A DNA stretch of 10,046 nt from an uncultured Methanosarcinales archaeon (GTDB lineage Archaea; Nanobdellota; Nanobdellia; Woesearchaeales; JAGVZT01). Where the stretch lies: contig CAYQPU010000043.1 in the NCBI GenBank assembly GCA_964419615.1, positions 1-10,046 of the forward strand. Direction: 5' to 3'. A program made the translations under genes and the position numbers. A model generated the notes under the pieces. The model searched no databases and was not told the DNA's origin. It saw nothing but the letters and a program-made list of their open reading frames with translations. How positions within the stretch are numbered: the stretch's first letter is position 1; each line of letters opens with the position of its first letter. Shown piece by piece: positions 2,188 to 4,119 of the stretch.

Positions 2188-2865
2188 ATGATAGATTTCA
2201 AGAATTTAAAAAAGAAAGGAACAAGAGTAATTTGGCCAGAATTTTGTGGTTATGGAAGTATTGCCTTAGATCATCCAAATGTTGGGATAATTAATAGAGA
2301 AGGAGATCAAGTATTTAAAGGAAAATTCACAGATTTTGAAGCAAATTTATCTTACATTCTGAAACTAGAGCTTCAGCCAAGATCTCACAGAATTGTGGAT
2401 GTTGATTTACAGGGAAACACACCTGATCTATTCTTAAAAGATGGATATCATTGTTTTGATGCAAGACTTAAAATGGGATCTGATTTGAGTGGCTCTGATT
2501 TTTGGGACACTATTAAATCTGATAATATTGGGGATATTGTTAAGACAAAAAAGAGACACTTGGTTTTAGCTTGGAGAGAAGGAGGAAGTATAGGTTGCTT
2601 ACCTATAACCCAACAGGATATTGGCATTGTTGGTCCAGATAATACTTTTCTCATTGGACATGTTAATGGGATTGACTATTTTTCAGATAATTTTGCCTAC
2701 ATGGTTGATTTTTCAAATGATAACAGGGATTTCAACATGGTTACTGGAAAGAAGATTCCTACTCAACCAATTGGTCTTCCCATTGTAGGTTTTTTACTTC
2801 CAGAAGGATATCGAGCTTTTGATACAAGTTACCAACCTGCGCAAGGAAGAGTTCAAATGGGTTAG
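2188..2865 (+). CDS. Hypothetical protein; C-terminal half has weak PemK/MazF-like motif similarity
   Basis: 225-aa ORF with TTTATAAT at 2160-2167 upstream; GDIVKTKKRHLVLA...GCLPITQQ segment. The family call is tentative. Confidence 0.75.
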   Translation: MIDFKNLKKKGTRVIWPEFCGYGSIALDHPNVGIINREGDQVFKGKFTDFEANLSYILKLELQPRSHRIVDVDLQGNTPDLFLKDGYHCFDARLKMGSDLSGSDFWDTIKSDNIGDIVKTKKRHLVLAWREGGSIGCLPITQQDIGIVGPDNTFLIGHVNGIDYFSDNFAYMVDFSNDNRDFNMVTGKKIPTQPIGLPIVGFLLPEGYRAFDTSYQPAQGRVQMG

Positions 2866-3010
2866 CTCAACCTTGGCCAAGATGAGAGTGAGACTTGAAT
2901 CATTAAATTAGGCGTTTTGGAACAGTTTGTTACTTTCTTAAGTATATGGTATTAAGTTAATGATTTATCTAACAAACTGTCGAGCGAACAGGCCTGCTTG
3001 AGCTAACCTG
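2858..3010 (+). ncRNA. Putative structured RNA (three-way junction) of unknown family; alternatively a ~149-bp MITE-like element
   Basis: Two nested perfect 11-bp inverted repeats: GGTTAGCTCAA 2860-2870 / TTGAGCTAACC 2998-3008 and ACAGTTTGTTA 2922-2932 / TAACAAACTGT 2970-2980. Additional shorter stems; G-U pairs favour the + strand. Confidence 0.55.
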
Positions 3011-3023
3011 CGAGTATTTACCA

Positions 3024-3037
3024 CAAGCTTTTAATAT
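3024..3037 (+). promoter_or_regulatory. BRE/TATA promoter of the Lrp/AsnC-domain gene
   Basis: CAAGCT-TTTAATAT; TATA 3030-3037 with 22 nt to the ATG at 3060. Confidence 0.7.
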
Positions 3038-3059
3038 GATTACATTCTACTTTTATATT

Positions 3060-3287
3060 ATGATAGCATATTTATTGATTTCACTAAAGGAAAGCTCAGA
3101 GCAGGATGTACTTTTAGAGTTAACAGATATGGAGGAGGTAATAGAAGCACATATCTTATTTGGGGAGTGGGATTTAATTGCTAAGGTTAATATTGAGTCT
3201 CCACAAGATATGGGAACTTTTGTTATGGAGAAGATTAGATCCTTACCTCAGATAAAGATAACTAGTACTTTGATTGCTGCAAAGTAA
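3060..3287 (+). CDS. Lrp/AsnC ligand-binding (RAM) domain protein without HTH (demi-FFRP), 75 aa
   Basis: MIAYLLI...EVIEAHILFGEWDLIAKV...FVMEKIRSLPQIKITSTLI matches the archaeal AsnC_trans_reg pattern. The ORF-track start at 3036 lies inside the TATA box, so 3060 is preferred. Confidence 0.88.
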   Translation: MIAYLLISLKESSEQDVLLELTDMEEVIEAHILFGEWDLIAKVNIESPQDMGTFVMEKIRSLPQIKITSTLIAAK

Positions 3288-3339: not shown

Positions 3340-4119
3340 ATGACTGATAAATTTAGTATATTTTTTACACATTTGAACGAGGCTAATGTCAAGAATTATT
3401 CTGCACGTGATGAATTAAAACCTCTGCTTGGCGATCTCCAATTGGAGAGGCAAACTTTTTATCATCCTGATTGGGATCTTTACTTACATGATGACAATTA
3501 CTTTGCTGCAATATACAGGGAGGGGGAATGTCTTGTGGCTGGTCCATATGAAGGGTATTTGGATATTAAAAAGGACTTAGAAACTATGACTGATGTTGCT
3601 TTAGATGAGAGCAAATTTTCAAAATTTATCAGAGGAAAAAGTGATTGGCCCATATTGGCTTTCTGGGGAACTTCAGCTTTAACTATAATATATCAAGGAT
3701 TTTCAGAAAATAAAATTCAAGCGATTGACAATATGGTATATGCTATGGGGGAAGGTGTTATTAATTCACCTAGACTTGAAGTGACTATTGCTGGCGTTCT
3801 GGCATCTTTCTTAGCAGTTGTGGCAATAACTGGGGTTTATGGTCTATACAGAGTTGGTATGGAAGCTCTAGTAAGTTACAAAAGATCTAAATTACTGTCA
3901 GAAGGATCTCAAAAATATGTCTTTGGAAAAAGTGCTGAGAAGTGGTTAGACACCATGAAACAATTTGAAGATATTAAAGCAGATGATCTCAGTTTAGCAG
4001 ATTTCCTTAAAAAGGCAGGTATGGATAGCAACAGATGGCTTAAAGCTATGACCCAATACAAGGAAGCTTTTTCTGGAGAACTAGATCTAGATGGATTTCT
4101 AAAAAAGAGTGGTTTTTAG
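3340..4119 (+). CDS. Hypothetical membrane protein (about 2 central TM helices)
   Basis: 259-aa ORF; hydrophobic segments WPILAFWGTSALTIIYQGF and VTIAGVLASFLAVVAITGVYGLY flanked by soluble regions. Confidence 0.8.
   Translation: MTDKFSIFFTHLNEANVKNYSARDELKPLLGDLQLERQTFYHPDWDLYLHDDNYFAAIYREGECLVAGPYEGYLDIKKDLETMTDVALDESKFSKFIRGKSDWPILAFWGTSALTIIYQGFSENKIQAIDNMVYAMGEGVINSPRLEVTIAGVLASFLAVVAITGVYGLYRVGMEALVSYKRSKLLSEGSQKYVFGKSAEKWLDTMKQFEDIKADDLSLADFLKKAGMDSNRWLKAMTQYKEAFSGELDLDGFLKKSGF

Follow-up and report, generated by a model that had tools for sequence, protein, structure and literature searches.

The nested-stem element at positions 2856 to 3012 of the window (the whole 10,046-nt stretch of archaeal DNA that we analyzed) is very probably a copy of a MITE that is now worn out and immobile; intact members of its family would be about 187 bp long and insert by a DDE-type reaction with 9-bp duplications. 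This assignment is made because the element is present in many copies, carries terminal inverted repeats with 9-bp target duplications in its better preserved relatives, occupies sites that are filled in one genome and empty in another, has a patchy taxonomic range and matches nothing in Rfam. The family itself matched nothing described among what was searched. A first-pass annotation of the same DNA had proposed a new single-copy noncoding RNA or ribozyme, a reading not supported by the finding of about 25 dispersed copies, in either orientation, present or absent at orthologous sites and distributed over 3 of 143 genera. Its alternative of a non-autonomous mobile element named the right kind of object and misplaced its ends: the true repeats lie about 20 nt outside the closing stem P1, and the duplication is 9 bp rather than the dinucleotide TG. 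Recognition of a MITE at this position removes the tempting false lead of a new structured RNA.

The window carries one copy of the repeat, with nested stems; all window features described here are on the plus strand. The core common to all copies in the window's own genome (G000, a Woesearchaeales archaeon; 1.48 Mb, 64 contigs, 99% complete) spans 2856 to 3012, corresponds to positions 1 to 161 of our covariance model R1 with a score of 129.8 bits, and is 1 of the 25 copies that nhmmer detected in that genome. The core is closed by P1, in which the 5′ arm at 2860 to 2872 pairs with the 3′ arm at 2996 to 3008, as indicated by the sequence and by covariation within the family. Eleven base pairs of P1 are perfect (GGTTAGCTCAA, 2860–2870, with TTGAGCTAACC, 2998–3008), and the stem is lengthened by wobble pairs. 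P2 joins GGCC at 2875 to 2878 with GGCC at 2991 to 2994. A mutual-information scan places a G·A-rich helix inside P2, between GAGAGUGAG at 2884 to 2892 (family consensus, GUGAGUGAG) and CGAGCGAAC at 2981 to 2989. The side-arm region that follows (2893–2921) forms a small GUAA-capped hairpin in most copies and is degenerate in the window copy, where it reads UCAUUAAAUUAGG. P3 is a perfect 11-bp helix between ACAGTTTGTTA at 2922 to 2932, the most conserved sequence of the family (98.4% of cells paired), and TAACAAACTGT at 2970 to 2980; it encloses a loop of hypervariable sequence and constant length (2933–2969; 37 nt in this copy). The first-pass annotation had drawn P1, P2, and the 11-bp helix at coordinates that hold, and all three stems are supported by covariation over 56 aligned copies. 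Two other pairings that it drew, a CGUUU/GAGCG helix (2913–2917/2982–2986) and a side hairpin at 2882 to 2903, are not supported by the family; both compete with the covariation-supported helix 2884–2892/2981–2989.

The 5′ arm of P1 holds a TAG at 2863 to 2865, and we confirmed the earlier statement that this is the stop codon of the upstream gene: an ORF of 225 aa (2188–2865) has its last codons and its stop inside the repeat. From the position of the stop codon we infer that the element would be transcribed as part of the 3′ portion of this ORF's mRNA. Overlap with a stop codon is confined to the window copy, the other copies being located at assorted intergenic places. On the other side, a small protein gene with an Lrp/AsnC ligand-binding domain (3036–3287; PF01037, E 3.3e-14) starts 23 nt after the core, and an ORF lies downstream of it at 3340 to 4119. 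The latter matched no Pfam family, and the upstream ORF matched neither a Pfam family nor any homologue among 5.8 billion clustered proteins. The genome of the sister species, G001, contains no counterpart of ORF 2188–2865 or of gene 3340–4119, so that the empty site of the window copy itself cannot be seen. The stretch with 2188–2865 and 3340–4119 looks like strain-specific accessory DNA.

The window copy is eroded at both ends. Its nearest relative is only 66% identical, and homology to the other G000 copies ends within a few bases of P1. A full-length profile built for G001 did not reach the flanks of the window copy, which was not even listed at E ≤ 1e-3. By eye, and in comparison with intact repeats, positions 3012 to 3022 (GAGTATTTACC) may be the remnant of a right terminal inverted repeat, a resemblance that is not significant alone; the reverse complement of 3014 to 3022 is GGTAAATAC, compared with GGCAAAGTC in intact relatives. 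The TG direct repeat earlier suggested as a target duplication is 2 bp only, whereas better preserved relatives have 9-bp duplications. Around the window copy itself no duplication rose above chance, the best pair of 9-mers agreeing at 8 of 9 positions, a value common in controls. We regard this copy as immobile because its recognizable termini and its target duplication have been lost, as in nearly all copies of G000.

A first BLAST search of the element against its own genome returned diverged relatives. A profile built from five copies detected 25 copies in G000 with nhmmer, which R1 confirmed as 24 full copies and 1 partial copy. These copies are about 157 nt long, are all intergenic and have a mean column identity of about 66%. 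They lie in either orientation: between genes of the same direction, 8 are sense and 5 antisense, and the rest are between divergent or convergent genes. G001 has about 30 copies, including a subfamily of ten young copies that are roughly 85 to 90% alike. Contigs of G001 often end inside repeat copies, and the short contigs with such ends that we checked carry ordinary genes.

Two structural RNA genes lie near copies in G000. An archaeal SRP RNA gene (contig C3, about 32984–33129; locus L032, 413–558) is divergent from one copy and about 55 nt away from it; the locus ends before its match (58.5 bits) is complete. Another copy is located 400 nt upstream of the 16S rRNA gene (contig C1, 6953–8592; L086). 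At 1640 nt this gene is longer than the 1478-position archaeal model and thus holds about 160 nt of extra sequence (an intron or an expansion).

Among 151 sampled genomes of the order, the repeat is present in four (3 of 143 genera): G000, G001, G150, which belongs to another, unrelated family and has 9 to 12 copies, and G122, which has 1 to 2 copies in GC-rich DNA. A broader covariance model, R2, returned the same four genomes as R1. None of six other genera of the same family carries the repeat, as searched with R1, and scattered single chance matches, rejected by the covariance model, were all that came out of pattern scans of 185,579 GTDB species genomes, IMG/VR, and JGI metagenome contigs. 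A distribution that is both patchy and multicopy indicates a mobile element rather than a cellular RNA gene. The first-pass annotation had named copy number as a check, multiple copies with empty sites implying a MITE, and the outcome of that check is a MITE. It had also called for a search of Rfam as a check of novelty, and no known family was matched: the window copy had no match at the gathering score among the 4227 models of Rfam 15, which include all ribozyme classes, and at E ≤ 10 the window copy and a set of 20 copies gave nothing relevant and no recurring match. Scans for tRNA and tmRNA in the window and in nine copies found none.

The ends of the element were defined on the young copies. 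When the ten young G001 copies were aligned with their flanks, similarity continued past P1 for about 20 nt in each direction, and the copies end in the terminal inverted repeats GGCAAAGTCAAC and GTTGACTTTGCC. In a scripted comparison, 6 of the 10 had perfect (9/9) target duplications directly outside these ends, each specific to its locus: AAGTTATAG, TGTAAAATA, CCTACAAAG, TTATTGAGA, GAGAACTTT, and TTTAGAATG. The remaining four comprise two with near-perfect duplications and two with damaged right ends. A second G001 subfamily ends in GATGAAGTCAAG and GGTTGAGTCAAG. In G150 the closing stem is itself the terminal repeat (...TGTCAACTTAAG), and two copies (L157 and L160) have apparent target duplications of about 8 to 9 bp, as read by eye. 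Target duplications around the copies of G000 were not above control.

Filled and empty sites were seen in both directions. The flanks of seven G001 copies (L051, L053, L057, L061, L067, L090, and L093) adjoin one another in copy-free G000 DNA. In the reverse case, contig C4 of G000 has a copy between two divergent promoters, and the spacer between the corresponding promoters of G001 lacks the copy and consists of about 65 unrelated bases. A few sites are shared by the two genomes. One is shared in a simple manner, with L047 and L030 at exactly equal distance from a conserved promoter; at the others, the two copies differ in subfamily or in orientation. Unlike copies at shared sites point to favored landing zones.

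Two larger arrangements were noted in G001. Loci L100 to L103 (e.g., C6:7652–7836, C23:13434–13618, and C33:4499–4679) have a form of the element of about 350 nt, in which the P3 loop is enlarged by about 190 nt of additional, well-conserved sequence with a short TCAAAT direct repeat at its borders. The short form could derive from this longer one, or the longer one could have arisen by nested insertion. At L094 to L098 (e.g., C48:18007–18095), five matches cover model positions 50 to 139 only, that is, the side arm and P3, and sit in longer units bounded by similar repeats (e.g., C48:17969–18442, 474 bp), which suggests that they are related elements of composite or rearranged structure.

The fold drawn for the window copy is a property of the family. 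Covariation was tested on a 56-row alignment of copies with shuffled and slid controls. In the full family structure 91.6% of cells were paired, compared with 77.5% after shuffling and about 35% in the slid controls; 24 of the 32 pairs had changed on both sides, and the observed values were reached by none of 500 shuffles. Four helices covary: P1, P2, and P3, on which RNAalifold and the mutual-information scan agreed, and the G·A-rich helix, which the latter added. Both-sided changes occur somewhere in the family at all 13 pairs of P1. P2 takes the forms GGCC/GGCC, UGCC/GGCA, and UACC/GGUA, with 99.5% of cells paired. Within the G·A-rich helix, columns 36–133 and 37–132 covary, and the central two pairs run through G-C, A-U, U-A, and C-G. 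On the stem side of this helix G34·A135 is kept in 42 of 45 copies and A35·G134 in 39 of 45; the junction-side set of G·A pairs has become Watson–Crick in 9 of 45 (CUCAC in the 3′ strand). Columns 52 and 57 of the side arm covary as a C-G pair closing the GUAA loop. P3 shows A-U/U-A/C-G and C-G/U-A swaps at two positions, and in G150 it is CAGUUUU/AAAACUG, where U-A replaces a G-C pair of G000. Length and architecture are conserved across the three genera, including the GC-rich copy of G122.

The loop of P3 keeps its length (36–38 nt in 43 of 45 copies) and nothing else that we could detect. Identity between the loops of different copies is about 36%, approximately random for AT-rich DNA and thus saturated, and the loop gave no structure signal (mean z 0.02). 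With the exception of a single 19-nt match, searches of the loops against the rest of the genome yielded nothing significant beyond chance. The idea that the loop serves as a guide was tested and rejected, as loops match their own flanks no better (7.24) than the flanks of other copies (7.24).

Folding energy did not pick a strand for the window element, because both strands fold well: RNAfold gave −43.6 kcal/mol for the plus strand (z −2.8, a value equaled by 1 of 200 shuffles), and the minus strand reached −36.8 kcal/mol (z −3.5). Folding of both strands, advised by the first-pass annotation, was thus not decisive. The same annotation had argued that G-U pairs favor a plus-strand RNA, an argument that fails for P1 and applies to the inner helices only. 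In 45 copies, mismatches in P1 are without strand bias (25 G·U and 26 A·C), as expected for a DNA inverted repeat; the inner helices are biased, with 22 G·U and about 2 A·C.

One point against a MITE as the whole explanation is that plain decay of dead copies does not account for the retained fold, the retained length and the compensated pairs. Across the G000 copies, identity is 69% in the core, 50% in the P1 region and 36% in the loop, and all 24 old copies keep fold and length though their termini are lost. For the orthologous pair L047/L030, 24 of 30 pairs stay the same, 3 carry compensating changes in both partners and one-sided changes are absent, while the loops are 43% identical. Conservation of the core in old copies suggests a constraint that acted after insertion. 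We consider it unlikely, yet worth entertaining, that the inner fold (P2, the G·A-rich helix, the GUAA hairpin, P3, and the fixed 37-nt spacer) is a selected module riding a transposon, so that an element of MITE origin would now be used by the host at many loci, either as a structured RNA, such as a k-junction-like element that binds protein in untranslated regions, or as a promoter-side DNA site. A core far better conserved than the loop and P1 region of the same copies would fit such use, as would the nearly invariant loop length, the loss of termini and not of core from old G000 copies and the compensation in L047/L030 with no one-sided change. The tandem G·A pairs and the GUAA-capped hairpin are strand-specific and RNA-like, in keeping with the excess of G·U over A·C in the inner helices; however, tandem G·A pairs and GNRA-like loops stabilize single-stranded DNA too, and the second set of G·A pairs is Watson–Crick in one-fifth of the copies (9 of 45). 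Host use is also hard to reconcile with the mixed direction of transcription, as about 10 to 12 copies lie between outward promoters, 7 to 8 follow the sense direction within 3′ regions and 5 run antisense. No promoter is placed to read into the element, the adjoining TATA boxes being those of divergent neighbors, and the family is absent from six sister genera. The compensated pairs come from the one clean orthologous pair only, and hairpin-templated repair could mimic them. If host use were real, a MITE would have spread an RNA or DNA module and wired it beside about two dozen promoters and gene ends of a streamlined DPANN genome.

Two further readings take the fold as the primary fact and dispense with a transposon. 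Covariation as strong as that seen here, with two-sided changes at 24 of 32 pairs and 0 of 500 shuffles as good, and the conservation of length and architecture across three genera are what one would look for in independent structured noncoding RNA paralogues with a cellular function. We judge this very improbable in view of the terminal inverted repeats with 9-bp target duplications, the filled and empty orthologous sites, the random orientation, and the burst of copies roughly 85 to 90% alike in G001. Paralogues of a cellular RNA also sit poorly with a lack of any conserved promoter and with a range of 3 of 143 genera, in which none of the six other genera of the family is included. That the element is a self-cleaving ribozyme, or another known catalytic or regulatory RNA, placed over a stop codon is harder still to credit: a multihelix junction with conserved unpaired purines recalls such RNAs, but all 4227 Rfam models went unmatched, even at E ≤ 10 across 20 copies, and the window copy alone overlaps a stop codon.

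A TATA box at a fixed 14 to 17 nt from the left repeat was considered as a promoter of the element, or as a sign of targeting to transcription start sites, and set aside; a promoter that serves the divergent neighbor in a tightly packed genome accounts for it better.

For the MITE, the best lead to a mobilizing enzyme is a transposase of the IS1 family, to which we give somewhat less than an even chance. IS1 was suspected because of the 9-bp duplication and the GG termini. The ends of Escherichia coli IS1A, taken from its record, are GGTAATGACTCCAACTTATTGAT and GGTGATGCTGCCAACTTACTGAT, and the repeat core TGCCAACTTA/GTCAACTTA matches them; by eye, about 15 of 20 aligned positions agree with the IS1A end, including CAACTTA. 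The MITE ends GGCAAAGTCAACTTAATG (G001) and CCTGCCAACTTAAG (G150) both have the (T/C)CAACTTA core, as does IS1A, and its distance from the tip is similar. An IS1-family transposase, seen in only 7 of the 401 genomes of the order and not found in G000, is present in G001, where the fresh insertions are. On its contig C10 (L166, 1197–1911), a 64-aa InsA-like zinc ribbon (20.7 bits, below the Pfam cutoff of 26.1) is followed by a 160-aa DDE_Tnp_IS1 domain (PF03400, 70.7 bits). The pair is flanked by an unknown ORF on one side and by a DeoC aldolase gene on the other, and the genus has no other IS1 gene. The gene looks truncated, and no recognizable terminal repeats surround it.

Other observations fit IS1 less well. 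No IS1 transposase was found in G150 or G122, both of which carry the repeat. In three other Woesearchaeales, the intact IS1 elements have ends (GGTAGTGTTA...TTTGACTGAT) unlike the MITE repeat and make 8-bp duplications. An autonomous element with the repeats of the MITE was not found, an absence that is weak evidence in draft metagenome bins. In two Woesearchaeales, G133 and G209, at least 10 contig ends each stop inside an IS1-family transposase gene (L171, L172, L174, L175, L177, and L178), a sign of recent IS1 expansion in family f127. With respect to other enzymes, the IS1595 and IS256 families were absent from the genomes searched, TnpB was not found (a TnpB-type zinc ribbon scored below cutoff), and G150 contained no long pair of repeats. 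An IS5-like element was rejected as a partner, its terminal repeats being unrelated to those of the MITE. This element, on G001 contig C58 (L118, 1415–2369), is about 955 bp long, with repeats GGCTCTGTCCAAAA and a DDE_Tnp_1 frame containing one TGA, and has a relative in G000 as a single match (C2:51060–51455).

The following course of events would account for these data. Intact members of about 187 bp with terminal inverted repeats of 12 to 14 bp (GGCAAAGTCAAC...) would be mobilized in trans by a transposase making 9-bp staggered cuts, the duplications suggesting an enzyme of the DDE type. Insertions would persist at the places that a compact genome tolerates, namely between divergent promoters or from a stop codon to the next promoter. 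In the window, the upstream ORF now takes its final codons and its TAG from the insertion. The inner fold (P1, P2, the G·A-rich helix, P3, and the loop of fixed length) would be kept by some pairing-dependent constraint, for which the candidates are action as RNA, a single-stranded DNA stage during transposition and hairpin-templated repair. Because long-dead copies keep a covarying multihelix core and a loop of exact length, the family is well suited to testing what lies behind covariation in repeats: a function as RNA, the chemistry of transposition, or repair from a template.

With this analysis a woesearchaeal MITE family is described by its ends, its 9-bp duplication, a census of copies, covariance models, its distribution and a candidate IS1-type mobilizer. 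Elements of this kind matter in very compact symbiont genomes, where they interrupt assemblies, contribute stop codons, and lie at promoters. In a published survey, a woesearchaeal genome is among the archaea densest in MITEs (PMC11602168).

Parts of the element recall other known systems. Like the k-turns and k-junctions bound by L7Ae in archaea, it has, on one strand only, tandem G·A/A·G pairs of the sheared type that adjoin a Watson–Crick stem and a three-way junction. In contrast to them, it has no canonical 3-nt bulge next to the invariant set of G·A pairs, and its junction-side G·A set is Watson–Crick in 9 of 45 copies; the likeness would be one of appearance. With IS1 elements and their deletion derivatives the family shares 9-bp duplications, GG termini, and a (T/C)CAACTTA identical to that of E. 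coli IS1A, whereas the intact IS1 elements of other Woesearchaeales differ in both repeats and duplication length (8 bp).

The closest parallels are the prokaryotic MITEs with hairpin bodies, which include ERIC/IRU of enterobacteria, Correia/NEMIS of Neisseria, the Rickettsia palindromic elements, and SM1 to SM4 of Sulfolobus. The present family appears to resemble them in its size (150–190 bp), in being noncoding, with dozens of intergenic copies, in its terminal inverted repeats and target duplication, and in a body that folds as a long imperfect hairpin; as seems to be the case for the Rickettsia elements, one end can run into an ORF. The difference lies in what has been conserved: in this family the best preserved part is the inner multihelix core, not the termini, and the tandem G·A pairs and the loop of fixed length and free sequence belong to the Woesearchaeales family.
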